Origin: Acidimicrobiia bacterium
Lineage (GTDB): Bacteria; Actinomycetota; Acidimicrobiia; IMCC26256; PALSA-610
Direction of reading: 5' to 3'
Length of the DNA stretch: 64,000 nt
Assembly (NCBI GenBank): GCA_052148155.1
Contig: JBKQIY010000144.1
Location: forward strand, 547 to 64,546
Shown piece by piece: positions 8,933 to 24,813 of this stretch (the first letter of the stretch is position 1; the number at the start of each line of letters is the position of its first letter). A model generated the notes under the pieces. The model searched no databases and was not told the origin of the DNA. It was given only the letters and a program-made list of their open reading frames with translations. Both the position numbers and the translations under genes were made by a program.

Positions 8933-9535
8933 ATGGGCAACGTCGTAGTCGCACTCTCGATGTCGCTGGACGGGTTCATCGCCGGACCTCACGACGGTCC
9001 CGCCAATCCGCTCGGTGACGGCGGAGCGAGGCTCTTCGACTGGTGGTCAGCCGGCACCGAGCGCGTCGGTGCCGACGACCGCTTCAAGCCGCCGGCGCGC
9101 AGTCGCGCGATCGTGAAAGAAATGTTCGACTGCGGCGCGATCATCACTGGTCGGCGTACCTTCGACATCGCCAACGGCTGGGGCGGGCACCATCCCGTCG
9201 GCGTCCCGTTCTTCTTACTCACCCACGACGCGCCCAGCCGGTACGTGGGAGTAGGTACCGGCGGAACGGTCGTCACCGACGGCATCGAGAGCGCACTTGA
9301 CCAGGCACGCGCGGTGGCCGATGGGCGCGACATTGCCGTCTGTGCTGCTGATGTAGCCCAGCAGTACCTCAAAGCCGGCCTGCTCGACGAAGTCCACGTG
9401 AGTCTTGTTCCCGTGCTGCTCGGCAGCGGTGTGCGGCTCTTCGCGAATATCGAAGACCGCCAGTTCTGCCTCGAATGCACCCGAGTGGTCGAATCCGACG
9501 GCGTCACCCACCTCCGCTACCACGTCGCGAAATAG
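8933..9535 (+). CDS. dihydrofolate reductase family protein (RibD C-terminal domain type)
   Basis: MGNVVVALSMSLDGFIAGP...LFDWW...TGRRTFD...PVFLLTH pattern typical of RibD_C/YwjB-like reductases. Confidence 0.8.
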   Translation: MGNVVVALSMSLDGFIAGPHDGPANPLGDGGARLFDWWSAGTERVGADDRFKPPARSRAIVKEMFDCGAIITGRRTFDIANGWGGHHPVGVPFFLLTHDAPSRYVGVGTGGTVVTDGIESALDQARAVADGRDIAVCAADVAQQYLKAGLLDEVHVSLVPVLLGSGVRLFANIEDRQFCLECTRVVESDGVTHLRYHVAK

Positions 9536-9804
9536 CCAGCGCGAGAGGCGGGACATGGGCAGTTCGTGTGGATTGCGAAGCGTGAAGCTGCGGCTGCGGC
9601 TTGCCACGGCTTGGGCGGTTTCGGTTTCGGGCACGCGCACGCGTCGTGAACCCCGGGCCGGCAATCGATCGACATGTGTTGATGCCAACACGCCTCGGCC
9701 GCCGAAGCCGTGGCAACTTGTCGTCTCGGTAAACAAAGCGTGAAGGACAGGAGATCGGGCGGACTATCGTGCGCGAGCGGTGTACCGCGTGCGAGGCTCA
9801 TGTG

Positions 9805-10161
9805 ATGGCAGAGATCCACATTTTCGCGCGGGCCCGAGACAAGATGGCGGTCCAGGCGGGCGAGGTCGTCTTCAGCCAAGGCGACGCCGGCGACGCGATG
9901 TACGCCGTACTCGACGGAGCCGTTGACATTTCGTTGGGCGGTGTCGCGGTGGAGACGGTCGGCCCGAGCGGAATATTTGGGGAACTTGCACTCGTGGACG
10001 CGAGCCCTCGCAGCGCGACCGCGATCGCGCGTGTCGAGTCGCAGCTCGCTCGGGTGGATCGAAGAGAGTTCATGTTCTTGGTGCAGGAGCATCCGACTTT
10101 CGCACTTCAAGTGATGCAGGTGCTCGCGGAACGTATTCGGCACGCGAACGAATCCCACTAG
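9805..10161 (+). CDS. stand-alone cyclic nucleotide-binding (CNB) domain protein
   Basis: ORF 9769..10161; ATG 9805 preferred (MAEIHIF...). Phosphate-binding cassette FGELALVDASPRSATAIA. At about 118 aa there is no room for an output domain. Confidence 0.8.
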   Translation: MAEIHIFARARDKMAVQAGEVVFSQGDAGDAMYAVLDGAVDISLGGVAVETVGPSGIFGELALVDASPRSATAIARVESQLARVDRREFMFLVQEHPTFALQVMQVLAERIRHANESH

Positions 10162-10443
10162 CTCTCCGGGCCGTGTTGCCGGTCCGGCGTTTTCGGCGTC
10201 GTACGGGTCGGTTGTTGGCTCGGCGAGGAGATCGCGGGTCTTGAGCCGTCGTGGGCCAAGCCGGCACTGTCGGGCGCCCAAGACGGAACGTTGAACACAG
10301 CAAGGCAACGCCCATGTGCGTGACTGCACCGGCATGCTCGCGCGGCCGGTCGTCGCGGTTGGTCTCCCGGCTCGCCGTAGCAGCGCTGACGTAAGATCGG
10401 ATGGTTGCTGGCTGACCGGACACCCAACTCGAAGGAGGCTTGG

Positions 10444-12285
10444 TTGTCGTCGGTCGTCGACGCGGAGCGTCGCGGTGAGCTTTTGCTCGCCTTCGACCTC
10501 GTGGAACGCGCGCTGGTCGAATTCCCGGGCGATGTCGAACTCCAATTCCGGGCCGTCCTCGCACTCGCGCGGTCCGGCTCGACGGGAGAGGCGGCTCGCA
10601 GGTTCGACGAGTATGAGCTCGGGATCGTCAAAGATGAAGACACGCAGGCGCTGTCGGCGCGACTGAAAAAGGATGCTGCCCTCGTCGCCGATGGTGACGA
10701 AGGACAGCGACTCGCTCTGCAAGCTGCCCTCGAGTATCGGATGATCTATGAGCAGACCGGCGGCTATTTCCCTGCGGTGAATGCGGCGACGTTAAGTTTC
10801 CTTGCCGGCGATCGCGACGGGGGAGTTGCGTTGGCTGGCGATGCGCTCCGAGCCGTCGTCGCTTCGCACGACGATTCTTACTACGCGTTGGCGACTGAAG
10901 CCGAAGCGCACCTGCTTCGGGGCGAGGTCGAAAGCGCACGGAGTGCGCTCGAGCGTGCGGCCCGTGCGAACAAGGGTGACTACGGCGCGCTCGCGACGAC
11001 GCGCCGCCAGTTACGCATGATCTGCCAGACCGCCGGAATCGATACGGAGGTCCTTGCGGCTGTGGCTGGACCAGCAGTCGTTCATTTCTGCGGTCACCGG
11101 ATCGATGTCGATGACCGTGGACCGTTCCGGTCGACGGACGAACGCCATGTTGGTGGCCTGATCGTGGACGTGGTCGCGAGACACAACGTCGGGTTCGCCT
11201 ATGGGTCGCTGGCGAGTGGCGGAGACATCTTGTGGGCCGAGGCGCTTCTCGCCCGCGGCGTCGAACTCCATATCGTCTTGCCGTTTGCGCTCGAAGAGTT
11301 CGTCGAGTGCTCGGTCGCCCCTTCCGGACACTCGTGGGTCGAACGGTTTTCGCAATGCCTCGATCGGGCTGCGTCGGTGACCTACGGCACCAGTGACGCC
11401 TTCCTCGGCGATGACGTCCTGTACCGATACTGCTCCGAAATTGCGATGGGACTCACCCTGGTGCGTGCACGCTGGCTCGACGCCGAGGTGCACCAATTCG
11501 CGTTGTGGGACGGTAAGCCGGCCCGCGGCGAGGCCGGTACCGCAATCGACGTCGCTCTGTGGCAGAGCACCGGTCATCCGGTCACGATCGTCCGACCTCC
11601 CACTGTCGACGGCCCGCCGATCATCACGGACTCGGGCCAGCGGTCAGTACCGGGCCCGACCGTCGCGCGTCACGACCGGGCCGTGGAGGCAGGTTCGGGG
11701 CGCGTCATCCGGGCGATGTTGTTCGCCGACGTACGCGGGTTCTCGAAACTCACTGACGAGCAACTTCCGACGTTTGCACAATATGTGTTCGGGTCTTTCG
11801 CCGAGGTGCTCGACCGATACCGCACCGTTGTGGAGTACAGCAACACGTGGGGGGATGCGCTCTACGCGGTCATCACCGATGCTGTGTCGGCGGCCGCGTG
11901 TGCGCTCGACCTCCAACACGCCATCGAGCATTTGGCTCCCGAGACGGTTGGGCTCCCGGCCGATCTCGCGCTCCGTCTTGGCGGACACGTCGGTCCGATC
12001 TTCCCTGTCGCCGATCTCATCCTCAAACGGCGATCGTTCGTCGGCTCGCACGTGAACCGCACGGCGCGTATCGAGCCCGTCACACCGCCGGGTGCCGTCT
12101 ACGTCACATCACCGTTCGCGGCTGCGCTCGAACTCACCGACGGACACCCATTCGCCTGCGACTACGTCGGACATCGGCCCGCCGCGAAAGATTACGGGTC
12201 GCTGCGCATGTATCGACTCCGACTGGCGAATACGACTCCGGCCGACTTGTCGGGCGGAGGGCGCGCGGGCACGCCCGTCTCGTAG
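10444..12285 (+). CDS. multidomain class III adenylate/guanylate cyclase (N-terminal helical repeats + SLOG-like Rossmann domain + cyclase)
   Basis: ORF 10405..12285; TTG 10444 preferred because GAAGGAGG lies 5-6 nt upstream. C-terminal cyclase motifs: MLFADVRGFSKL, NTWGDALYAV, GSHVNRTARIE. Middle region: VVHFCGHRI...GFAYGSLASGGDILWAEALLARGVELHIVLPF. Confidence 0.85.
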   Translation: MSSVVDAERRGELLLAFDLVERALVEFPGDVELQFRAVLALARSGSTGEAARRFDEYELGIVKDEDTQALSARLKKDAALVADGDEGQRLALQAALEYRMIYEQTGGYFPAVNAATLSFLAGDRDGGVALAGDALRAVVASHDDSYYALATEAEAHLLRGEVESARSALERAARANKGDYGALATTRRQLRMICQTAGIDTEVLAAVAGPAVVHFCGHRIDVDDRGPFRSTDERHVGGLIVDVVARHNVGFAYGSLASGGDILWAEALLARGVELHIVLPFALEEFVECSVAPSGHSWVERFSQCLDRAASVTYGTSDAFLGDDVLYRYCSEIAMGLTLVRARWLDAEVHQFALWDGKPARGEAGTAIDVALWQSTGHPVTIVRPPTVDGPPIITDSGQRSVPGPTVARHDRAVEAGSGRVIRAMLFADVRGFSKLTDEQLPTFAQYVFGSFAEVLDRYRTVVEYSNTWGDALYAVITDAVSAAACALDLQHAIEHLAPETVGLPADLALRLGGHVGPIFPVADLILKRRSFVGSHVNRTARIEPVTPPGAVYVTSPFAAALELTDGHPFACDYVGHRPAAKDYGSLRMYRLRLANTTPADLSGGGRAGTPVS

Positions 12286-12326: not shown

Positions 12327-15300
12327 CTAGCTTTTCGAGGTGGTCGTCGCGTCGGGAACCGCGGAGGACAATCTCGCCGGAACGTCGGTTGGACGGGCCG
12401 CGATGCCGGCCGAGCCGTACAGAGTCTTACGGTTCGGCCGTCGGCACCGTGGACGGTGAGGCGTCTCGCCCATCGCAGGACAGCCCGACGGGCTCTCGTT
12501 CACCGGCCCCGAAGATGGGAGCTCGGCACGGACCGGCAATGGTTTCGCGGTCCGCACCACAGATGGCCGCGCGATCGGCGGGGACGCGTTGATGTTCCAT
12601 GTGGCGGTGGTCTGAGCCGGCGAACACGCGGGTGCGTAGGTCTCGCCGGGAAAGTATGTCTGCCACTCGTCTGGGGTCAGCGCCCGCGGGGCGGCGGCAC
12701 AGAGCTGGCTGAGCAGCGTGGCGGGTGACGCACCCCACGAGTCGGTGAAGAAACGCGAACCGTGGAAATCGATGGCGACCGCGGCGATTTCACCGTCAGC
12801 GGGCATCCCCACAGATATCTGCCCTTCGACCTGGCCGACAGCCGGCGTGACGTCTCGCGCGATTCCCAGCGGCTGCAAGAATCGGCCCAACTCGTCGCCG
12901 GTCACCACGACATCGGTGCCGTCACCGCGGACGTCGTTGTAGAAGTTCAGGCCTACCGTCGCGACCTCCCCGTTGTCTGAAATCGCCAGCGCGGTCGGAT
13001 CGAACGTGGACGATGAGGTCAGCACGACATCCGATGCCACGTCTTGCGTGTTCGACGTTGACCCGAGATTCCAGATCGCGACGGTCCCGCCGGCATTGAA
13101 GGCGAGAAGCTGGCCGTTCGGGCTGAACCGGAGGGCATAACCGTCGTTTCCGAAGCTGCCGCTGCCGAGGGCAACGACCCCGGCGCTCATGCTCAGCGTG
13201 TGGAGTATCGCTCCGCTGCGCGCATCCAACAGCACGCCGCCGACTTCGCCGGAAGAACCCTGCGTTGCCACAAGCGCGACGACGTCGGTGCCGGGTTGAA
13301 AGGCCGGTACGGACACGGTCTGCTCGCCCAGCCCGACCGACTGGTTGTCGATCACCTGGAGTGGTTGACCGGTCGCGACGGAATAGGTCACCAGCGCGCA
13401 GCTGTGCGGTCCGGACGTCCCGTGCGCGTTGTCGTCGAAGGTCACGGCGACGACGTCGGTGGCGTCACTCAATGACACACCGACGGGGATGTCGTCGGGT
13501 ATGCGAGCCAGGGGGGTCGCGCCCAACTGCGTGCTGTCGACGATGGTGCCGGTCGCCGCGTCGAGGATCAGCACGCGGCACGGGCATCCGCCGGTGTGTC
13601 CGATGATCGCGACCGCGTCTGTCCCGCTGGGATCAAAGCTGACCGCGTTGATCGCTTCGTCGGGTCCGAGGGGCACGGATAGGCGACGTTCGGTGTGAGC
13701 GGCTCCGTCGATCATGGCGAGGGAGTGTGCACTCCAGGCGAGCGCGGTCTGGCCGGTCGGTGCCTCGACGACGGTCGTCCCCGCGGGCACAGCACCGTTG
13801 CTGGGCACGATGGCGGACGAGGTACTGGCCGGTGACTGCAGGTCGATGATCTGCAATGCCGTCAGGCTCGACGCGACCAGGCTGGTTCCGTTCGGACTGA
13901 TCGACAGATTGCAGAAGTACGACGCGCATAACTCGAGCGGTACGACACCCTGCGTCGTCCATTTCGCCGCGGTGAGGTTCCACACCTGGTAGGTCGGGAC
14001 CGACCCGATCGAGTTGAGCAGCACGACCGCGCGGCCGTCCGGGGTCGAGGTCACGAGCGTGTTGAGGTTGCCGCCACCAAGCGCGGCCGGAATAGGCCGC
14101 GTCAGTTCGAACTGTGCACGGGGCGCCGAGGCCCCGGCAACCACTTGCAGTTCGACGTGCCGTTCGTTGTTATACACCCACACGGTCGGGCCGGTGGGCG
14201 CGAACTCCACCGCGGGCGGGTCGGCGGTCTCGTCTGGCGAGATCCGCGGCGGGTTGACCCAGCTGCTCAACTCCGGTGTCGCGAAACTGCCGATCTTGTA
14301 GGCGGCGCCGGCCTTGCCGGTCGCGACGTCGATCGGGACCAACGCGTAGTCGTCGCCTCCGGTGTAGACGAGCGCAGTGGCGAGTGAGCCGTCCTCGTTG
14401 ATCGCGACACCGACCGGCTGGTGGGGGAGTGCGATTCGGCGCGGGGGTGATTGACCGGTTGATATGTCCACCGCCTTCGCGCCGTTCGGGGCGAGCCACG
14501 CGAGCACGTCGCCGTTTCCCGACAGCGCAGGGCGCCGTCCGGTCAGACCGTTGCCGCTGTCCGGTTCTTGAGAGGCGACCGACCATGCCGAGACGGTGCC
14601 GTCGCCGCTCGCGGCGTTCGACGTCAGCGCCAAGACGTTGCCGTCGCCCGAGAGGGCGCTTTCGGAAGTCAGGCCGGTGCTACTCGTCGCGTTCGCCGCC
14701 AGTGAGCCGTCGGCGTTCCACACCTGCACGACGTCGGGCCGGCTCGATTGTGCCGATGAATACGTCGCGAAGCGCTGGCTGTCCGATGACCATGACACGG
14801 GATACGGCTGCGCCGACAGGAGATCTGACGTCGATCCGGCGAGCTGGCCGGTCACGAAGCGGCCGCCGGCATTCGCGAGTGCGTCCAGTGCACTGTTCGC
14901 AACTGAACCGTCGATCTGGATATCAGGCTGTTCGCAGCCGCTGTCTGGATACGAGGCGGTGTTCGAGGTCGAGTTCGGGTTGATCGCGCTGCTCGCACAT
15001 GCGTGGCGTACGGCCTCCGCCGCGAGGAGGACGCCCAGCTGGTAGGTCTGGTCACCCGAGCTCATCAGTTGTTCGCTGCGACGGGCAGCAAGTCTCGCCT
15101 CGGCGAGGAGGGTCGATTGCTGCAGCGCGAGGCTGCCCTTGACCAAGTTCGAGTTCGCGGTGTCGAGATTCGCGTTGGTGATGGAGAGTTCTTGCGCGCG
15201 GCTCTCGGCCAGGGTGCGCTGCTGGGAGGCTTCGATGGCACTGAGCTCGGCTTCATGCTGGCGGGCGAAAGCCAAACCACGCTGCTGGTCTGCCTCCATG

Positions 15301-16091
15301 CGCTGCTGGTCCGCCACAAGGCTGGCCCTGGTCGCCTTTCCGCGCGCGACAATCGCCTTTTCGCTCGCGATGAGTGCGAGCCCCTTTTGGACATCGGCGA
15401 GGTGCTGTTCGGTTCGCGCCCGTGCCGCGCTGCGTCGAGCGGCTCCTGCCGCGTTGACCGCGAAGACGGACGTCGCGATCGATGCCAGGGTGAGAACCAC
15501 GAGCGCGACGCCCGCCGCGACCGCCTGCCGTAACGCTCGCCGATGCTGACGTACGTCTTCGCCAGTGAGTTCGTCCTTGGCCATCCCATGCGCGGGCGCG
15601 GCGAGGTCGGCGATGTGATCTCGGAACCGGCCGTCGGTCAGGTCGAGCTGGACTTCTGCACGTGCCCAGCGCATATCGACATGAAACGGCTCTTCCTGAA
15701 AACAGCCCGCGAACGCCGACCCCAGCGCGGTTGTGGCTTTCCAGTCGAAGTCGTTCGCGCTTTCGTCCCAGCGGATCTCGCCGTCAGTCAACAACACCAA
15801 GAGTCCGTCCGAGCCGTGCTTGGCCCGCCAGTGTTCGACCTCGCGTCCACACCACACCGACGCCGCCGCGTCGGGCGAGGCAAGGAACAGGAAGTACCGT
15901 GAGCTATCGATCGCGTCGGCGATGGAAGACCACAACCCCGGATTGGCCGACAGGGCTGTCCGGTCCCGGAACACGTCCAGTGCCCGGCGCCGGTACCACG
16001 GCTTGGCGAACTTCGACAGTCCGTCTTGCACGCGCTCCGATAACAGATCGTCGCCGCCATGGCTGTACGAAATGAAGACGTCGTAGCTCAT
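12327..16091 (-). CDS. TIR domain protein with one TM helix, coiled coil and large beta-propeller-like region
   Basis: ORF 12327..16106; ATG 16091 preferred (GGGAGG 5 nt upstream). N-terminus SYDVFISYSH...FLFLASPDAAASVWCGREVEHW (TIR). Hydrophobic AVAAGVALVVLTLASIATSVFAV. Q-rich heptad region. Repeated blade-like units (LSGDGNVLAL, LSGNGDVLAW, INEDGSLATA, STPDGRAVVL, ISPNGTSLVA, FSPNGQLLAF, ISDNGEVATV). Near-C-terminal LTPDEWQTYFPGETYAPAC. Confidence 0.85.
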   Translation of the reverse strand: MSYDVFISYSHGGDDLLSERVQDGLSKFAKPWYRRRALDVFRDRTALSANPGLWSSIADAIDSSRYFLFLASPDAAASVWCGREVEHWRAKHGSDGLLVLLTDGEIRWDESANDFDWKATTALGSAFAGCFQEEPFHVDMRWARAEVQLDLTDGRFRDHIADLAAPAHGMAKDELTGEDVRQHRRALRQAVAAGVALVVLTLASIATSVFAVNAAGAARRSAARARTEQHLADVQKGLALIASEKAIVARGKATRASLVADQQRMEADQQRGLAFARQHEAELSAIEASQQRTLAESRAQELSITNANLDTANSNLVKGSLALQQSTLLAEARLAARRSEQLMSSGDQTYQLGVLLAAEAVRHACASSAINPNSTSNTASYPDSGCEQPDIQIDGSVANSALDALANAGGRFVTGQLAGSTSDLLSAQPYPVSWSSDSQRFATYSSAQSSRPDVVQVWNADGSLAANATSSTGLTSESALSGDGNVLALTSNAASGDGTVSAWSVASQEPDSGNGLTGRRPALSGNGDVLAWLAPNGAKAVDISTGQSPPRRIALPHQPVGVAINEDGSLATALVYTGGDDYALVPIDVATGKAGAAYKIGSFATPELSSWVNPPRISPDETADPPAVEFAPTGPTVWVYNNERHVELQVVAGASAPRAQFELTRPIPAALGGGNLNTLVTSTPDGRAVVLLNSIGSVPTYQVWNLTAAKWTTQGVVPLELCASYFCNLSISPNGTSLVASSLTALQIIDLQSPASTSSAIVPSNGAVPAGTTVVEAPTGQTALAWSAHSLAMIDGAAHTERRLSVPLGPDEAINAVSFDPSGTDAVAIIGHTGGCPCRVLILDAATGTIVDSTQLGATPLARIPDDIPVGVSLSDATDVVAVTFDDNAHGTSGPHSCALVTYSVATGQPLQVIDNQSVGLGEQTVSVPAFQPGTDVVALVATQGSSGEVGGVLLDARSGAILHTLSMSAGVVALGSGSFGNDGYALRFSPNGQLLAFNAGGTVAIWNLGSTSNTQDVASDVVLTSSSTFDPTALAISDNGEVATVGLNFYNDVRGDGTDVVVTGDELGRFLQPLGIARDVTPAVGQVEGQISVGMPADGEIAAVAIDFHGSRFFTDSWGASPATLLSQLCAAAPRALTPDEWQTYFPGETYAPACSPAQTTATWNINASPPIARPSVVRTAKPLPVRAELPSSGPVNESPSGCPAMGETPHRPRCRRPNRKTLYGSAGIAARPTDVPARLSSAVPDATTTSKS

Positions 16092-17383: not shown

Positions 17384-18067
17384 TCAGCGTTCGCGGTTGT
17401 CGAACCGATATCCCATGCCTGGCTCGGTGATGAAGTACCGCGGTCGGGACGGTTCGGGTTCGAGCTTGTTTCGGATCTGGCTGATGTAGATGCGCAGATA
17501 GTGGGTCTTGTCGTCGTGTTCTGGCCCCCATGCGTGTTGGAGCATCTGCTGTTGCGTCACGAGCCTGCCGGGGTGGCGGACGAGCTGTTCGACGATCTGC
17601 CATTGCCTGGGCGTGAGACGAATCTCGCCGTCATTGCCGCGTATTTGCTTGGCTCGCAGATCGATCGTGAAGTCGTCGGTGACGACGACTGGTGCTGCTT
17701 CTGTGGTTGTTCCTCGCCGCAACACGGCGCGCAGTCGTGCGAGGAATTCATTGACGACGAACGGTTTCGTGACGTAGTCGTCTGCGCCTGCGTCGAGCGC
17801 TGCGACCTTCGCAGACTCGGTATCGACGGCCGACAGCGCCACGATGGGCACGTCAGTCCAGTCTCGCAACGCGGTCGCGACCATGACGCCGGCCATGTCG
17901 GGCAGATAGAGGTCGAGGATGACGGCGTCGGGATGTTCGCGTTCGGCGAGCGTCAGACCTTCGCTGCCTGTGGTCGCGATCACGACCTCGTACTCGTGGG
18001 CCTCGAGGAGGATCCGCAGCGCGCGCCCTAACGCGGTGTCGTCCTCGATGACGAGCAGCTTGGTCAC
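17384..18067 (-). CDS. kdpE: KdpE-like OmpR-family response regulator
   Basis: ORF 17384..18346 trimmed to GTG 18067 (VTKLLVIEDD; the alternative ATG at 18097 adds 10 aa). Receiver motifs DLYLPDMAG and DDYVTKPF. C-terminus THYLRIYISQIRNKLEPEPSRPRYFITEPGMGYRF closely resembles my recollection of E. coli KdpE. Confidence 0.85.
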   Translation of the reverse strand: MTKLLVIEDDTALGRALRILLEAHEYEVVIATTGSEGLTLAEREHPDAVILDLYLPDMAGVMVATALRDWTDVPIVALSAVDTESAKVAALDAGADDYVTKPFVVNEFLARLRAVLRRGTTTEAAPVVVTDDFTIDLRAKQIRGNDGEIRLTPRQWQIVEQLVRHPGRLVTQQQMLQHAWGPEHDDKTHYLRIYISQIRNKLEPEPSRPRYFITEPGMGYRFDNRER

Positions 18068-18200
18068 GGCTCTCGCACATTCGGACCGACCGGGCATCGT
18101 TGCGTTCCGGGCGGGTTCGGCGCATGTCTGGACCGTGCCGGTGGCTGGCGGGTGTGTGTCGCCGTTTCCTCTTGTCGTTGGGACGCCGTGAGGGCCTCCT

Positions 18201-18884
18201 CTAGTCGTGTCTGAGGTTGGACGCTGAATGTTGGAAGAGCCGTTCGATGTCCGCTTCGGTGGCGCTTTCCGTAACGAGGATGACTTCGTCGCCCGGCGCA
18301 AGTTGGAATGATCCGCCGGGGACGTTGGGTTCACCGCCTCGCACAACCGCAGCGATCATCGTGCCGGTGGGCATCGTGATATCGGCGAGCGTGCGTCCCG
18401 CAGCGTCGGAGTGTGCACCGATCGTCGTTTCGATGAGCCGCACGCCGGCACGGGCGAGTTGCAGCAGCCCGATCGTGTCAGCCGAGCCCGTTGCTTCCAT
18501 CACCAGCGACAAGAGGGTCGACGATGCGGAGACAGCGACGTCGATGCCCCAATGTTCATCGAAGAGCCACTGATTTTCAGGATTGTTCACGCGTGCAACG
18601 ATGCGTGGAATGTCGAAATAGCGTTTGGCGAGCAACGAGGTGACGAGATTGTCTTCGTCATCGCCGGTGGTCGCGACCAACACGTCGGCTTTGAGCGCGC
18701 CCGATCCTTCGAGGACGTTGGGGTCGCAGGCGTCACCCCACAAGACCTGGCATTTGAGGTTACCTTTGAGGCGTTCGACGAGTTCGTCGTCGATGTCGAT
18801 GAGGCTTACCTCGTGACGAGCCGCGGTCAGCGCGGTCGCGGTTTCGATACCGAGACGTCCGGCTCCGGTGATGATGACTCTCAT
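18201..18884 (-). CDS. trkA: TrkA-type RCK (K+ transport regulatory, NAD-binding) protein
   Basis: MRVIITGAGRLG Rossmann motif plus a C-terminal TrkA_C-like region. ATG 18884 overlaps the upstream stop (ATGA). Confidence 0.85.
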   Translation of the reverse strand: MRVIITGAGRLGIETATALTAARHEVSLIDIDDELVERLKGNLKCQVLWGDACDPNVLEGSGALKADVLVATTGDDEDNLVTSLLAKRYFDIPRIVARVNNPENQWLFDEHWGIDVAVSASSTLLSLVMEATGSADTIGLLQLARAGVRLIETTIGAHSDAAGRTLADITMPTGTMIAAVVRGGEPNVPGGSFQLAPGDEVILVTESATEADIERLFQHSASNLRHD

Positions 18885-19540
18885 CGTGGCCATTCCTTGT
18901 CCAAGAAGCTGCGAAGTCGTTGAAGAGAGGTTGCCGCGACGATGAAACTGATGATGTCTCCGTCTTCGATGGCGGTCGTCGTGGTCGGGATGAGGGATTG
19001 GCCCCCGCGGTTGATCTCGACGACGTGGATCTCGCTGTCGACGTTGAACTCGTTGACGTTACGTCCGGTGAGATAGATGGGCGCAGGCGCACGGACCAGA
19101 AGGTTTTCGCCGTTGCCGAAGACTTGTTCGGGTTCGAGCTCACGAAAGGAAAGGAGTTGATGGATCTCGTTGACGGTCCAACGCACAGAGGCGACGGTCG
19201 TGATGCCGAGGTCTCGGTAGATGTCGGCGCGGCGGGGGTCGTAGATGCGGGCGACGACTTTCGGAACGCGGTAGATATCTCGGGCGGTTCTCGCTCCGAC
19301 GATGTTGGAGTTATCGCCGGACGTGACCGCGATGAACGCGTCGGCTTCTTGAATGTTGACGGCTTCGAGAACGCGTTTGCTGAACCCGATTCCGGTCTGC
19401 GCGCGTCCCGAGAAGCGGCGCGACAGGCGGAGGAAGGCTTTGGGGTTCTTGTCGATCACGCAGACGGAGTGGCCTTCGCTGTCGAGCCGTTCCGCGATGC
19501 CGGCTCCGACGCGTCCGCAGCCCATGACGATGGCGTGCAT
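18881..19540 (-). CDS. trkA: TrkA-type RCK (K+ transport regulatory, NAD-binding) protein
   Basis: MHAIVMGCGRVGAGIA Rossmann motif, then DAFIAVTSGDNSNIV. GGAGAA RBS lies between the ATPase stop and this ATG. Confidence 0.85.
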   Translation of the reverse strand: MHAIVMGCGRVGAGIAERLDSEGHSVCVIDKNPKAFLRLSRRFSGRAQTGIGFSKRVLEAVNIQEADAFIAVTSGDNSNIVGARTARDIYRVPKVVARIYDPRRADIYRDLGITTVASVRWTVNEIHQLLSFRELEPEQVFGNGENLLVRAPAPIYLTGRNVNEFNVDSEIHVVEINRGGQSLIPTTTTAIEDGDIISFIVAATSLQRLRSFLDKEWPR

Positions 19541-19550
19541 GCTGGTTCTC

Positions 19551-22325
19551 CTAGGCGGTCGTCGGTTGGCGTCGTGATCGGATCCACAGTTTGCGCAGTT
19601 CGTCTGCGATCAGCAGGACGACACCGAACGCGATGAGCATGAGCCAGTCGTACACGGTGAGTGGCGCCGTGTGGAACACCGATTGCAGCAGTGGGACATA
19701 GCTGATCGCGGAGATGATCGCGATGCCGAGAAATTCTGCGCCGACCAGCGGGAGGTTGGACAGAAGCCCGACTCGGAACACGCTCTCCTCGTCGGTGCGG
19801 ACCGCGAAGCCGTTGAAGAACTGACTGACGACGATGCCGGCTTGGGTCATGGTCAGCGCTTCGCGGTAGGTGGGGTTGCTCGCGGTGAACTGACTGAACG
19901 GAATGTGTGCGGAATGGATCCGCCAGTAAAAGGCGAAGATCACACCAGCTGACTGGATGATGCCCAGAAACAAGAATCGGCGTACGACCGACCCCGAGAA
20001 CAGCCGTTCGGATGGAGGGCGAGGCGGACGGTCCATGATGCCAGGTTCGGGTGGCTCGGCGCCGAGCGCGAGGGCAGGCATGACGTCCGATCCAAGGTCG
20101 ATCGCGAGGACCTGCAGCGCGGTGAGCGGCACGAGCGGGAATCCGACGAACACACTGATCAGGATCGGGCTGAGTTCGGCAATGTTGTGACTGAACAGGT
20201 AGATGAGGAACTTACGGATGTTCTGGTACACCGAGCGTCCGAGCTCGACCGCCGAGACGATCGACGCGAACGAATCGTCGAGCAGGACCATCACAGCGGC
20301 TTCACGAGCGACGTCAGTGCCGGTGATGCCCATCGCGACACCAATGTCCGCGCGTTTGAGCGCCGGAGCATCGTTGACGCCGTCGCCGGTGACCGCGACG
20401 ATCTCGCCCATGTCTTTCAGGGCGCTCACGACTTGCATCTTGTGTTCGGGCCGTACCCGTGCGAACACGATCTCCCAATGCGCTCTGAGCACGTCCTTGA
20501 GGTCGTCGTCGGACATGGCTTCGAGATCGTTGCCGCTGACGACCTTGGCGTCATCGCCGACAACGATGCCGACCCGTCGAGCGATGGCTTCGGCGGTGAG
20601 GCCGTAGTCGCCGGTGACCATGATCACGCGGATGCCCGCACCGCGACACGCACGCACCGCATCGACCACTTCCGGGCGAGGAGGATCGAGCATCCCGACC
20701 AAGCCCAAAAACGCGAGTTCACGTTCGGCCTCCTCGACCGGCGCGTAGGCCTGGGAGACGGGTCTTGACGCGACACCCAGCACCCGCAACGCATCTCCGG
20801 CGAGCGCGTCGTTCGCGGCGGTGATCTCGTTGCGGAGCTCGTCGGTCAACGCGACGACGGACCCGTTCCAGCGTACGGTCGTACATCGCGCGAGGAGCTC
20901 TTGCGGAGAGCCCTTGACGAAGCTCTCGTAGCAGCCGTCGACATCGTGGATCGTCGACATCAGTTTGCGATCCGAATCGAAAGGGTGCTCACTGACCCGT
21001 GGGGTCTTCTCAGCCGCAGCTTCGATGTCGAAACCCGCCTTCGCGGCAGCGACCACGATCGCGCCTTCGGTTGTGTCCCCAAGGATCCGCCAGCCCTGGT
21101 CTGCCGTCGGTGCCAAGAGTCTCGCGTCCGCGCACAACGCAGCGGTCCGCAACAGGACAGATACGTCTTCATCGACGTCGTCGACAGCTCCTTCGGGCGC
21201 ATAGCCGACACCATGTACGCGGTGCACGATGCCGGACGCCCACGCTGCCTGTACTGTCATTTCGGCCTTGGTCAAGGTGCCGGTCTTGTCGGTACAGATG
21301 ACCGTCGTGGAGCCAAGTGTCTCCACCGCGAGCAGCTTTTTGATCAACGCATTGCGCTTCGCCATGCGACGTACGCCGATCGCCAACGAAACCGACAATG
21401 TGGCTGGGAGTCCCTCCGGAACGAGCGCGACCATGACGCCAAGCGCGAAGACGAACGCGTCCGTCACCTTCGAACCACTGGTTGTGGCACGCAACGCGAA
21501 CAAGACCGCACCAAGACCGATGGCCGCGACCGAAACCCGCTTGGCCATGATCGCGACCTGCCGTTGGAGTGGGCTTTTTTCTTCGTGGACCTCAGAGGTG
21601 AGTTGGAAGATCCGCCCGAACTCGGTTCCCAATCCGGTCGCGAAGATGACGGCCTTGCCGGTTCCGTTTACGACCGACGTCCCCATGAACACTGCGTTGC
21701 GGGCCTCGACGAGCTCCGTGCCGGGAGCCGCCTCGCTGTCGGTGCGTCCCACCGGGTCGCTCTCGCCGGTGAGCGCAATGTTGTTGACTGACAGCTCATG
21801 AGCCTCGACGACGCGAGCGTCCGCGGAGATCGCATCGCCCGCCTCGAGAACCACAACATCGCCAGGAACCAGGTCCCGTGCTGGCACCTCTACGCGCTCG
21901 CCATCGCGAATCACGCGACTCGATCGAGGCACCATCGCCTGCAGGGCCTCAGCCGTCCGTTCCGCGGAATACTCCTGGAAAAATCCGATCACGGCATTGA
22001 GCAATACGACACACAAGATCGCGATCGCCAGCTCCAAGTTGCCGGGATCGTGCGGCGTTTGGATGCCGTACGCCAAGAACGTGATCGCTGACGCAACGAT
22101 CAGCACTACCGCGAAAAGATCGGTGAACTGCGCGAAGAACCGAAAGATGATCGGGCGGTGCTTTGCGCGCGGCAGCTCGTTCGGACCGCACCGCACGAGC
22201 CGCGCTGCGGCCTCGTCGTTCGTGAGTCCACGCGGCGAACTGTCGAGCGCCGCGTACACATCCAGGCGCGACAACTCAATCGGCCCGTCCGCCACTGGCA
22301 ACTCCCGCTCCTGCGCGGTCGTCAA
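19551..22325 (-). CDS. cation-translocating P-type ATPase (P2-type)
   Basis: [10 protein letters not shown] phosphorylation motif, [23 protein letters not shown], and an N-terminal cation-ATPase domain ([19 protein letters not shown]). Start is TTG 22325 per the ORF track and is uncertain. Confidence 0.9.
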
Positions 22326-22711: not shown

Positions 22712-23713
22712 TCAGTCTGCGGCTTGGGCGAGAACCTTCATATCGCTCGGAAGCTGCGCCTTCTCCCGGAAGTCGCGCAGTCCGTAGCCGGTCAGGGTCG
22801 TCGGTCCGATTGCGCGGGCGGTCGCGCTGCGCCGCAAGCCGAACATGGGTGCGAGTTCGCCGAAGTAGCTGCCGACGTCTATGCGCGCGAGGTCTTCTTC
22901 GCTGCCGTCGTCGCGTGTACGCAGGATCTGGATCTGGCCTGTCTCCACGACGTAGACGAGGTCGCCGCGGTCGCCCTGGGTGAAGATGGCCTCGCCCGCC
23001 GCGAGTTGGATGGTTTCGGGATCGCGGGGTGAGGTGTCGGCACGTGGAGTCAGGTTTACGACACCGTCGGCGAGCGGAATCATCCGCTCGTCGTGTGTGG
23101 CGACGACGACTAACCGGCCGTCGTCGGCGAGCGCCCGCATCAGCTTCAGTACGCCGTCGACCTGGATGTAGTCGAGGTGGGCGGTGGGTTCGTCGGCGAG
23201 GATGACGGGCGGGTCGTGCGCGAGCGCCCGCGCGATGGCCACGCGCTGTTGTTGGCCGCCCGACATTCCCGAAGGTCGATGCTGGAGGCGGTGGCCGAGG
23301 TCCACTCGTTCGAGGAGTTCGGTGGCGCGGGCACGAGCCACGCGAGATCTCACTCCGGCTCCGCGCAGCGGCACCATCACGTTCTCGACTGCGGTCAAGG
23401 ACGGGACGAGGTTGAACGCTTGGAACACGACGCCGACGGTCTTGCGGCGATACTCGGTCAGTGACGCACCGTGGAGGGCGATGACATCAACTCCTGCGAC
23501 GGACACTTCGCCGGAGTGCGGGGTCAAAATCGCGGCGAGCACCGACAAGAGCGTCGTCTTGCCGCATCCCGACGCGCCGAGCAGCAAGACGAGCTCGCCG
23601 GCCGATGCTTCGACTGAAAGTCCGTCGATCGGCCGGATCGGATATCCCCCCGACGAGTACTCGATGACAAGATCGGTCACGCGCAGATCGGCCCGGGCGG
23701 TGGACACGCTCAC
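22712..23713 (-). CDS. ABC transporter ATP-binding protein with C-terminal cyclic nucleotide-binding domain
   Basis: ORF 22712..24043 trimmed to GTG 23713, which overlaps the permease stop (GTGA). Walker A GASGCGKTT, signature MSGGQQQR, Walker B VILADEPT. A C-terminal region of roughly 110 aa follows with GEAIFTQGDRGD...FGELAPMFGLRRSATARA (CNB phosphate-binding cassette). Confidence 0.85.
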   Translation of the reverse strand: MSVSTARADLRVTDLVIEYSSGGYPIRPIDGLSVEASAGELVLLLGASGCGKTTLLSVLAAILTPHSGEVSVAGVDVIALHGASLTEYRRKTVGVVFQAFNLVPSLTAVENVMVPLRGAGVRSRVARARATELLERVDLGHRLQHRPSGMSGGQQQRVAIARALAHDPPVILADEPTAHLDYIQVDGVLKLMRALADDGRLVVVATHDERMIPLADGVVNLTPRADTSPRDPETIQLAAGEAIFTQGDRGDLVYVVETGQIQILRTRDDGSEEDLARIDVGSYFGELAPMFGLRRSATARAIGPTTLTGYGLRDFREKAQLPSDMKVLAQAAD

Positions 23714-24813
23714 CCGCCGAACGCCAGGGCAGGATCGACGGTCACGGCTCGTCGCAACGCAACGAGCGACGACGCCAGACCGACCACAACCGCGACGATC
23801 GGTAGCACGACGTACGACGAGATCGGGACCGAGACCGCCATCGCCATCGCGGGTGTCAGGAGAAACGAGAGAATGTATGCGGCGACCGCGGCGGACAACG
23901 CCAGCACGATCGCTTGGAACGCCAAGCCGGACAGCAGTGTCCGCGTCGCGACGCCGGTCGCTTTGAACACTGCGAAGTCGCGGGATCGCTCGATGGCCTG
24001 CAAGTACAGGATCGAACCGATGATTCCCGCTGCCACGATCCACAGCAGAACGGTGATGAAGCTGATTGTCTGTGTCGCTTGGCTGATCGGTCGTTTGAGG
24101 TCAGCCTTCACCGCCTGGTTCGAGAGCAGCTGGTAGCCCGCGGGTGGCGACACGATCGAGCCTCGCACCGCGACAGTCGTGGCGAGCGGAGCGCCGTTCA
24201 GCGCTCCTTCTTGCAGGCTGGCTAGCGGCACGAATGCGACGGGAACGCCAGCGAAGTACGTCAGCCCTTTGGTGCGACCCACGATCGTGAACTCGCGGCC
24301 GAGCGCACGAACCGTCGAACCGAGCCGCAGGCCGAGCGAGGCATCAGCGATCATGTCGCCCGATGCGCGCAACGACCGACCGCCGGCAAGCTTCGGATTC
24401 ACCATCCCACCCGGCACGATCCCGATCACGTTGAGGTCGCGCACCGACGTCGTCGTGACGCTCGTGCGCATGAGTAGCACCGGCTCGGCGGCCTGTACGC
24501 CGGGGAGCGCGGCGATCTTGTGCGCTTCCGAAGCCGGAAATACCCGCGAACTCGTGAACGGTCCCGACACGCCGGCCGGCACAATCCACGAGTCGACATG
24601 GAAGGCCGCAACCGTGTGTTTGATCTCGTTTCCGAAGCTGGCGCTGACGCCGCTCATCAACAGCGTCAACGCGAAGACCAACCCGGCCGCAAGCACCCCG
24701 ATCAGAAACCGACGGCGCCGCCACTGCAGGTCACGCAAGCTCACGAACAGCAAGAACCTCGAGCTTAACGGCACCGTGGTTCCCCTCGCGGGCCGCGGGC
24801 ACTTCGAATTCAT
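23710..24813 (-). CDS. ABC transporter permease (FtsX/MacB-like)
   Basis: ORF 23710..25002 trimmed to ATG 24813. Order is N-terminal TM (FLIGVLAAGLVFALTLLM), a large loop, then three C-terminal TM segments (FITVLLWIVAAGIIGSILY..., LSGLAFQAIVLALSAAVAAY..., VVLPIVAVVVGLASSLVAL). Confidence 0.75.
   Translation of the reverse strand: MNSKCPRPARGTTVPLSSRFLLFVSLRDLQWRRRRFLIGVLAAGLVFALTLLMSGVSASFGNEIKHTVAAFHVDSWIVPAGVSGPFTSSRVFPASEAHKIAALPGVQAAEPVLLMRTSVTTTSVRDLNVIGIVPGGMVNPKLAGGRSLRASGDMIADASLGLRLGSTVRALGREFTIVGRTKGLTYFAGVPVAFVPLASLQEGALNGAPLATTVAVRGSIVSPPAGYQLLSNQAVKADLKRPISQATQTISFITVLLWIVAAGIIGSILYLQAIERSRDFAVFKATGVATRTLLSGLAFQAIVLALSAAVAAYILSFLLTPAMAMAVSVPISSYVVLPIVAVVVGLASSLVALRRAVTVDPALAFGG

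Follow-up and report, generated by a model that had tools for sequence, protein, structure and literature searches.

A protein family with TPR-S, SLOG-fold and class III cyclase domains is linked to TIR and cNMP-binding genes: a candidate relay from NAD-derived messengers to cyclic nucleotides

Introduction

To our knowledge, all characterized bacterial pathways that signal through TIR domains (the Thoeris types) lead to an effector by which the cell is killed or starved. Here, we describe a gene for a 613-amino-acid (aa) protein that combines an N-terminal TPR-S domain, a middle domain of SLOG fold and a C-terminal class III nucleotidyl cyclase domain. It lies in a stretch of 64,000 nucleotides from an Acidimicrobiia bacterium (GenBank assembly GCA_052148155.1, contig JBKQIY010000144.1, positions 547 to 64,546), which was analyzed as a whole and is referred to as the window. 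The gene probably provides the central part of a conserved cassette for signalling, in which it is linked to genes for TIR proteins and for proteins with a cyclic nucleoside monophosphate (cNMP)-binding (CNB) domain. SLOG was reportedly defined by Burroughs et al. in 2015 (NAR), and TPR-S is said to have been defined, probably, by Burroughs and Aravind in 2020 (J Bacteriol 202:e00365-20).

The closest described system is Thoeris, in which, as here, the gene for a TIR with a catalytic glutamate adjoins that for a protein whose domains are of nucleotide-sensor type (SLOG fold, TPR-S) and fused to an output enzyme. In type I, the TIR protein ThsB is paired with the SIR2-SLOG protein ThsA, whose SLOG domain senses the cyclic ADP-ribose (cADPR) isomer 3'cADPR (PMC9503650). 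In type VIII, a TIR is paired with ThsI, a CMP-hydrolase-TPR protein that is switched on by TIR-made canonical cADPR and carries a TPR which Aravind and colleagues had earlier predicted for TIR signalling (preprint 10.64898/2025.12.03.692087). In contrast to Thoeris, a class III cyclase takes the place of an output enzyme that kills the cell or depletes NAD or nucleotides, a third tier of cNMP-binding proteins is present, and the TIR protein is large, with a transmembrane helix and WD40 propellers. Moreover, the genes often do not form one operon, no defence-island context was found, and PADLOC returned zero matches for the cyclase protein.

Three further systems share parts of this layout. 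BcTir/Tpr of Bacillus cereus (preprint 10.1101/2023.05.26.542521) likewise pairs a TIR gene with a Rossmannoid nucleotide-processing domain fused to TPR. However, the domains of that system stand in the reverse order, with an N-terminal glycosidase and a C-terminal TPR, there is no cyclase, and BcTpr is itself an NADase. Pycsar and Pucsar also link a class III-type cyclase to CNB-domain proteins with variable output modules. Here, in contrast, the cyclase carries TPR-S and SLOG-fold domains, the linked TIR is free of a CNB domain, and the CNB partners are Crp, SARP, ABC, MFS, MMPL or stand-alone proteins instead of TIR or 3TM killers. In human ASK1/MAP3K5 (PF13281; PDB 5ulm and 8qgy), a TPR-S-type module precedes a signalling enzyme too, but the output is a kinase, the domain order differs and there is no cyclase. 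Overall, the cassette is Thoeris-like in its first two steps and cyclase/CNB-like in its last two, yet it is neither.

In the searchable literature, no description or test of a TIR-linked TPR-S-SLOG-cyclase protein was found, the founding TPR-S and SLOG papers lying outside that search. Neither the name TPR-S in that literature nor this architecture in two Aravind-group eLife papers was found. A 2025 Thoeris survey, as far as its main text and supplement text go, lists no class III cyclase among the effectors, and the text of a 2026 Pucsar paper, which surveys immune cyclases, does not include this cassette (preprint 10.64898/2026.08.12.744502). That earlier computational work has remarked on the association of these genes is a realistic possibility.

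Results and Discussion

A widespread family of three-domain proteins

A first-pass annotation, made from the sequence of the window, had proposed that this gene encodes a three-part cyclase with a helical-repeat N-terminal domain, a SLOG-like middle domain and a class III cyclase domain. This architecture was borne out by Pfam, by AlphaFold2 (AF2) models and by more than 1,300 database relatives, and the domain assignments are held with high confidence. All motifs on which the proposal had been built were located, i.e. YFPAVNAATLSFL (aa 108), VVHFCGHRI (aa 212) and YGSLASGGD...HIVLPF (aa 253-281) in the first two parts and FADVRGFS (aa 427), NTWGDALY (aa 467) and GSHVNRTARIE (aa 534) in the cyclase. 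Its interpretation as a whole is partly supported, as detailed below. The gene and its domains are as follows (positions in the window).

10444..12285, plus strand: three-domain protein, TPR-S / SLOG-fold / class III cyclase (Pfam, homologues, full-length AF2 model)
10444..11043, plus strand: TPR-S helical-repeat domain, aa 1-200 (Pfam PF20308; conserved R73, K76, D77, Y98, N113, E154)
11065..11637, plus strand: SLOG-fold (DprA-like) Rossmannoid domain, aa 208-398 (AF2 and Foldseek; no Pfam coverage)
11701..12234, plus strand: class III nucleotidyl cyclase domain, aa 420-597 (Pfam PF00211, profile against PDB, Foldseek)

The open reading frame (ORF) starts with TTG at 10444, six bases 3' of GAAGGAGG (10431-10438), and its stop is at 12285. 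The full-length AF2 model reached a predicted local distance difference test score (pLDDT) of 86.4 and a predicted TM-score (pTM) of 0.87, and the layout comprises TPR-S at aa 16-118, further TPR to about aa 200, the Rossmannoid domain at aa 208-398 and the cyclase at aa 420-597. An identical NCBI entry is annotated as 'tetratricopeptide repeat-containing protein' (Acidimicrobiia metagenome-assembled genome, MAG). NCBIfam gave nothing useful for the protein, and a promoter and terminator scan was uninformative.

The 120 relatives listed are 56% to 100% identical to the 613-aa protein, and almost all of them span 95-100% of its length. With more than 1,300 matching proteins, most of those listed near full length, a chance ORF is ruled out; the family is real and widespread. 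In a scan with one genome per species, a relative was carried by at least 575 species-level genomes, including Actinomycetota (Acidimicrobiia, Thermoleophilia/Solirubrobacterales, Mycobacterium MAGs), Alpha-, Beta- and Gammaproteobacteria, a cyanobacterium and an acidobacterium.

Linkage to TIR and CNB genes

In order to survey the neighbourhoods, stop-to-stop ORFs of 84 loci were searched with a TIR hidden Markov model built from the proteins of the window and of loci L003 and L004. A TIR ORF lies within 600 bp of the family gene in 45 of the 84 loci, in every arrangement. It shares the strand of the family gene in 17 loci where it lies upstream and in 9 where it lies downstream; it is divergent in 14 and convergent in 5. 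When the distance is extended to 2 kb, 50 of 83 loci have a TIR gene, and they belong to Actinomycetota, Alpha-, Beta- and Gammaproteobacteria and a cyanobacterium. Per 100 kb, 51 TIR ORFs occur at 0-500 bp as against about 1 at 4-10 kb, an enrichment of about 50-fold. The adjacency of TIR_2 was also seen in independent Pfam-labelled gene calls, directly downstream in L003 and divergent upstream in L004. CNB ORFs are concentrated near the family gene as well (83 loci). Their density drops from 17 per 100 kb at 0-500 bp to 5.8 at 2-4 kb, a zone corresponding to the far side of the ~3-kb TIR gene, and to 0.4-1.1 further out. All-against-all clustering of the loci revealed no conserved gene beyond TIR/WD40 and CNB.

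Both types of partner flank the gene in the window, a context that the first-pass annotation had missed:

9769..10161, plus strand (start GTG 9769 or ATG 9805): small stand-alone CNB protein, proposed to bind what the cyclase makes (Pfam cNMP_binding, E 2.1e-19)
12327..16091, minus strand: TIR partner, proposed source of the signal, with N-terminal TIR, a single transmembrane helix, a coiled-coil-like segment and a ~1,000-aa propeller-like region (Pfam TIR_2, 9e-8)
15840..15842, minus strand: TIR catalytic Glu codon (E84, motif WCGRE; sequence motif)
15456..15524, minus strand: predicted single transmembrane helix, aa 190-212 of the TIR partner (hydrophobicity scan)

We propose, with a probability of roughly 0.55, that the cassette is a relay, in which a TIR would give rise to an NAD-derived ligand, the TPR-S/SLOG module would sense this ligand, and the cyclase would pass the signal on as a cNMP to its receptors. 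The TIR partner would be activated via its variable sensor region, which probably faces outward, and would then convert NAD+ into a messenger derived from ADP-ribose (ADPR). This messenger would bind the TPR-S/SLOG module of the cyclase protein and thereby release or dimerize the cyclase domains, a mode of gating proposed because class III cyclases act as dimers. The cyclase would produce a 3',5'-cNMP, whose base we do not specify, and the neighbouring CNB protein would read it; at other loci, this role may fall to a Crp-type regulator, a CNB-transporter or a fused SARP-CNB module. That a SLOG domain might gate the cyclase had already been suggested from the sequence, and the extension of this idea to a TIR-made ligand has strong contextual support in the TIR gene as a conserved neighbour.

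If this relay is correct, NAD-derived messengers would feed classical cyclic-nucleotide signalling. The system is convenient to work with, as it consists of two or three genes with soluble domains, and candidate ligands are commercially available.

Candidate sensor modules of the cyclase protein

The helical-repeat region was identified as TPR-S, Pfam PF20308 matching aa 16-118 with 36.9 bits (curated cut-off 27.6), and this domain was found in every relative listed. Weaker, generic TPR matches reach to about aa 185, together with a faint match to PF13281 (MAP3K_TRAF_bd). The first-pass annotation had named PF13281, which was right in spirit: a profile built on aa 1-205 of diverse relatives retrieves the central regulatory region of human ASK1/MAP3K5, a TPR region (5ulm, E 3e-4; also 8qgy), and relatives match PF13281, one of them above its cut-off, while the domain itself is TPR-S. 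The 84-locus survey established a genomic association of this TPR-S protein family with TIR genes. TPR-S has been predicted in the literature to sense NAD-derived signals (preprint 10.64898/2025.12.03.692087, citing Burroughs and Aravind 2020), which makes it a candidate sensor of the ligand, and as the ligand site it appears an equally good or better candidate than the SLOG-fold domain. Binding of an ADPR-type ligand by TPR-S would matter because the module is common to human ASK1.

For the middle domain, the AF2 model of aa 192-400 (pLDDT 88.2) is Rossmannoid, with strands alternating with helices in a three-layer arrangement around a parallel sheet of at least five strands. The top Foldseek match in PDB was DprA (E 1.5e-4, probability 1.0); ShosA, LOG, the N-terminal domain of TRPM2 and the molybdenum cofactor (Moco) carrier protein came next. 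All of these PDB matches are SLOG members, with TM-scores of only about 0.4; ThsA is not among the best 50 PDB matches listed. Against BFVD, a collection of predicted viral structures, the best match had an E value of 1.6e-9 and a TM-score of 0.75, a 'DprA-like' protein of Streptomyces phage Mildred21 reached 1.4e-8 and 0.77, and several 'YspA cpYpsA-related SLOG' proteins and DUF2493 were also retrieved. The domain shares with these best structural matches, DprA, phage DprA-like and YspA (YAcAr) SLOG proteins, a G-x-R after strand 1, an SGxAxGxD-like loop and an LP after strand 3. It differs from DprA and YspA in its position between TPR-S and cyclase, and nothing suggests DNA binding.

Sequence profiles did not reproduce this assignment. 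Pfam and NCBIfam gave no match to the middle domain, and its profile retrieved chance-level hits only among PDB sequences (E >= 0.17), none of them SLOG. When 38 diverse middle domains were scanned with Pfam (E<=10), a single one touched DNA_processg_A (PF02481), at the noise level of E 0.05. Comparison with an enterobacterial DprA profile by hhalign gave a probability of 0.3%, which is a weak test, as its 111 DprA sequences (of 120 listed) are all at least 68% identical. The SLOG-like character proposed for the middle domain is thus upheld by fold (Foldseek against PDB and BFVD) and not by sequence profile (Pfam, PDB sequences, hhalign), and we accept the model-based assignment as a DprA-like SLOG fold. 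At 50% identity, the middle domain alone falls into 2,743 clusters, a large family for which there is no Pfam model.

Structurally closest to the middle domain are the BFVD matches A0A7G8LE34 and A0A222YVC8 (Streptomyces phage Mildred21), small viral proteins of 153-171 aa. Viral SLOG domains have been proposed as counter-measures to ADPR-type signals (PMC9503650), and by analogy these relatives could be such phage counter-measures.

Conserved residues cluster after strand 1 (H214, G217, H218), in the loop YGSLAxGxD (G254, G259, D261) and after strand 3 (LPF/EF/SV: P280, F286, S290, V291); WDG (355-357) and AGTxxD (365-369) are conserved as well. By inspection, the strand-1 and strand-3 residues coincide with functional sites of the TIR-DrHyd-SLOG clade (PMC9503650). 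This pocket bears on an explanation in which the SLOG-fold domain is an enzyme, an N-glycosidase or an NAD/ADPR-processing activity that makes, converts or degrades the messenger, so that TPR-S would be the sole sensor. The Rossmannoid domain fused to TPR in BcTpr is an active NADase (preprint 10.1101/2023.05.26.542521), ThsI pairs a CMP-hydrolase-like domain with TPR (preprint 10.64898/2025.12.03.692087), LOG-clade SLOG domains are N-glycosidases (PMC9503650), and the pocket holds the conserved polar residues H214, H218, D261, S290, D356, T366 and D369. However, E285, the acidic residue of the helix that follows strand 3, is not fully conserved in diverse members, and the invariant positions, mostly Gly, Pro, Ser, Trp and His, give the impression of a binding pocket rather than an active site. 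We therefore consider an enzymatic SLOG-fold domain unlikely, albeit a serious contender.

TIR partners and CNB proteins

The TIR gene of the window is convergent with the cyclase gene and starts with ATG at 16091, preceded by GGGAGG. PADLOC found only a weak ThsB match (5.8e-4) for its product, which fits the general pattern of the partners with a divergent propeller region. Of 59 partner TIR domains, 57 retain the catalytic Glu (motif WCxxE). In nearly all partners, the TIR is succeeded by one strongly hydrophobic helix (~aa 200-234) and then by WD40 propellers spanning about 700 aa. Given a single transmembrane helix and a cytoplasmic N-terminus, these propellers should face outward, so that, if the relay is correct, the partner would be a bacterial TIR protein with receptor-like membrane topology.

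Individual partners deviate from this layout. In a cyanobacterial MAG (L078, 6170-9613, minus strand), the partner consists of TIR, NACHT and FGE-sulfatase domains and has no transmembrane helix, an architecture typical of conflict systems. The partner in L003 (5447-7786, plus strand) also lacks the helix, and its ~600-aa C-terminal region has no Pfam match and contains a P-loop-like GRKGAGKT. Three loci (L010, L048, L062) each encode two TIR-transmembrane(-WD40) paralogues within 20 kb. A motif recurs C-terminal to the propellers, C-x2-C followed after ~20 residues by LT-x2-E-x3-Y/F (e.g. in L007, L013 and L024; in the window at ~12330-12600).

The CNB gene of the window lies 283 bp upstream of the cyclase gene on the same strand, and the phosphate-binding cassette FGELALVDASPRSATA of its product is intact. 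Elsewhere, L006 and L051 have a Crp-type regulator as their CNB partner. A double-CNB C39-peptidase ABC exporter also occurs in this role (confirmed by Pfam in L018), as do MFS or MMPL transporters whose tail is a CNB domain and an MFS-CNB-patatin protein. In L085, a single ORF joins SARP, CNB, TPR-S, SLOG and cyclase, and a TIR-transmembrane-WD40 gene begins 4 bp later; the SARP-CNB fusion architecture is also present in P0189, P0203 and P0256. Because SARP-CNB is fused to the cyclase protein itself, the cNMP appears to be the output, and at least some outputs are then transcriptional.

Directly downstream of the TIR partner in L008 (15247-20160, plus strand), a stop-free ORF spans MFS, cNMP-binding and patatin phospholipase domains and represents either one fusion or two in-frame genes. 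In L081 (8033-11752, plus strand), an ABC ATPase lies in frame upstream of the family gene with no intervening stop; this is a fusion or a stop-to-stop artefact, and the ATPase is probably a separate gene. The window itself encodes, about 10 kb from the cyclase gene, an ABC ATPase with a C-terminal CNB domain (22715-24100, minus strand; ABC_tran 1.7e-33, cNMP_binding 9.4e-18), possibly a second cNMP receptor.

These partners speak to the reverse order of events, as in Pycsar and Pucsar, in which the cyclase protein would both sense and signal and the cNMP would activate the TIR as an NAD-depleting effector. In Pucsar, cyclic GMP indeed activates a TIR effector (preprint 10.64898/2026.08.12.744502), and cyclase and TIR genes are adjacent here. 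However, the TIR effectors of Pycsar and Pucsar carry a cNMP-binding domain, whereas the partners found here combine TIR with a transmembrane helix and WD40 or with NACHT and FGE-sulfatase and have no CNB domain. The loci also encode separate CNB proteins whose outputs are not TIRs. By type, TPR-S and SLOG are sensors of small molecules, whereas WD40 and NACHT are typical upstream sensors. All of this makes the reverse order improbable.

A more specific form of the relay, offered tentatively since we would give it somewhat less than an even chance, is a three-tier Toll-like pathway, in which a membrane receptor with an outward-facing WD40 sensor and a cytoplasmic TIR enzyme would act, through an NAD-derived messenger, on the TPR-S/SLOG-gated cyclase, and the cNMP would drive transcription factors and transporters via CNB domains. 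In that event, the pathway would be the first in which an NAD-derived second messenger is turned into a second one, a cNMP, and TIR signalling would serve physiological or envelope sensing instead of abortive infection.

The class III cyclase domain

The cyclase domain is assigned by Pfam PF00211 (Guanylate_cyc) at aa 424-567 (32.5 bits, curated cut-off 21.9), by the family cyclase profile, which retrieves 47 PDB cyclases (best 8.7e-15), and by Foldseek of the full-length model against Rv1900c and Ma1120 (target-normalized TM-scores of 0.78-0.80, E 3.5e-8). Alignment to 3mr7, 3et6 and 2w01 mapped the metal-binding Asp pair to D429 and D471, the phosphate-binding Arg to R511 and the transition-state pair to N538 and R542. 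D429, D471, R511 and R542 are invariant across relatives, or nearly so in diverse members, and N538 is present in the window protein. The proposal of a class III cyclase is supported by these results, and the worry that its catalytic residues might be degenerate was answered by the alignment, in which metal Asp, Arg and Asn are all retained in the window protein and the base-specifying positions deviate.

These positions are unusual. The one that holds Lys in adenylate and Glu in guanylate cyclases is N467, a nearly invariant Asn, and the second is S531 in the window protein and variable elsewhere, so that a canonical base-specifying pair (Lys/Asp for ATP or Glu/Cys for GTP) was not found in the cyclase domain. 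The nucleotide preference can therefore not be read from the sequence.

Could the cyclase-homology domain then be a pseudo-enzyme that only dimerizes or binds nucleotides? The Pfam score is modest, precomputed Pfam annotation lacks PF00211 for many relatives, and besides the change of Lys/Glu to Asn, most members have Thr or Ser in place of the transition-state Asn. However, both metal Asp and both Arg residues are kept as described above, and the persistent linkage and fusion to CNB domains argues for cNMP production. We regard a pseudo-enzyme as very improbable; judged by its residues, the domain looks catalytically equipped.

Appraisal of the relay and genomic context

Several observations weigh against the relay. 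About 40% of the loci have no TIR gene within 2 kb, most have no nearby CNB gene, and CNB proteins are common in these phyla. The TIR gene of the window, being convergent, is not co-transcribed with the cyclase gene. The outward orientation of the WD40 propellers is inferred solely from the single hydrophobic helix. The SLOG assignment lacks sequence-profile support, and membership in a named SLOG family is not borne out. The ligand site could be placed in TPR-S or in the SLOG-fold domain alike, and each step of the relay is one that we infer. In the cyclase, the Thr or Ser that replaces the transition-state Asn in most relatives counts on the same side, and the non-canonical base-specifying residues could mean that cyclase activity is low.

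In the window, the neighbours are RibD_C, acyl-CoA ligase, TetR, an OmpR regulator, TrkA and a P-type ATPase and do not look like a defence island. This metabolic and regulatory neighbourhood, the PADLOC null result and a close relative without TIR neighbour (L001) would suit an ordinary housekeeping adenylate cyclase with a TPR for protein contacts only and incidental TIR and CNB neighbours, but the ~50-fold TIR and ~15-fold CNB enrichment beside the gene across phyla and gene orders, together with the fusion variants, makes this hardly credible.

The relay itself might serve conflict or ordinary signalling. A conflict system is suggested by the variable sensor region of the TIR partners, by patatin and peptide-exporter outputs and by the occurrence of a TIR and Rossmannoid-TPR pair in two anti-phage systems. 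Ordinary signalling is suggested by the membrane-receptor layout, by Crp/SARP regulators and transporters as outputs, by the metabolic and regulatory neighbours and by the lack of a PADLOC match.

Just past the TIR gene, the segment at 17384-22325 (minus strand) encodes the OmpR-type response regulator, TrkA and the P-type cation ATPase and resembles an ion-homeostasis cluster. A 401-aa ORF at 9517-10722 (minus strand) runs antisense to the CNB and cyclase genes; it has no family match and is probably a shadow ORF in this sequence of 65% GC.

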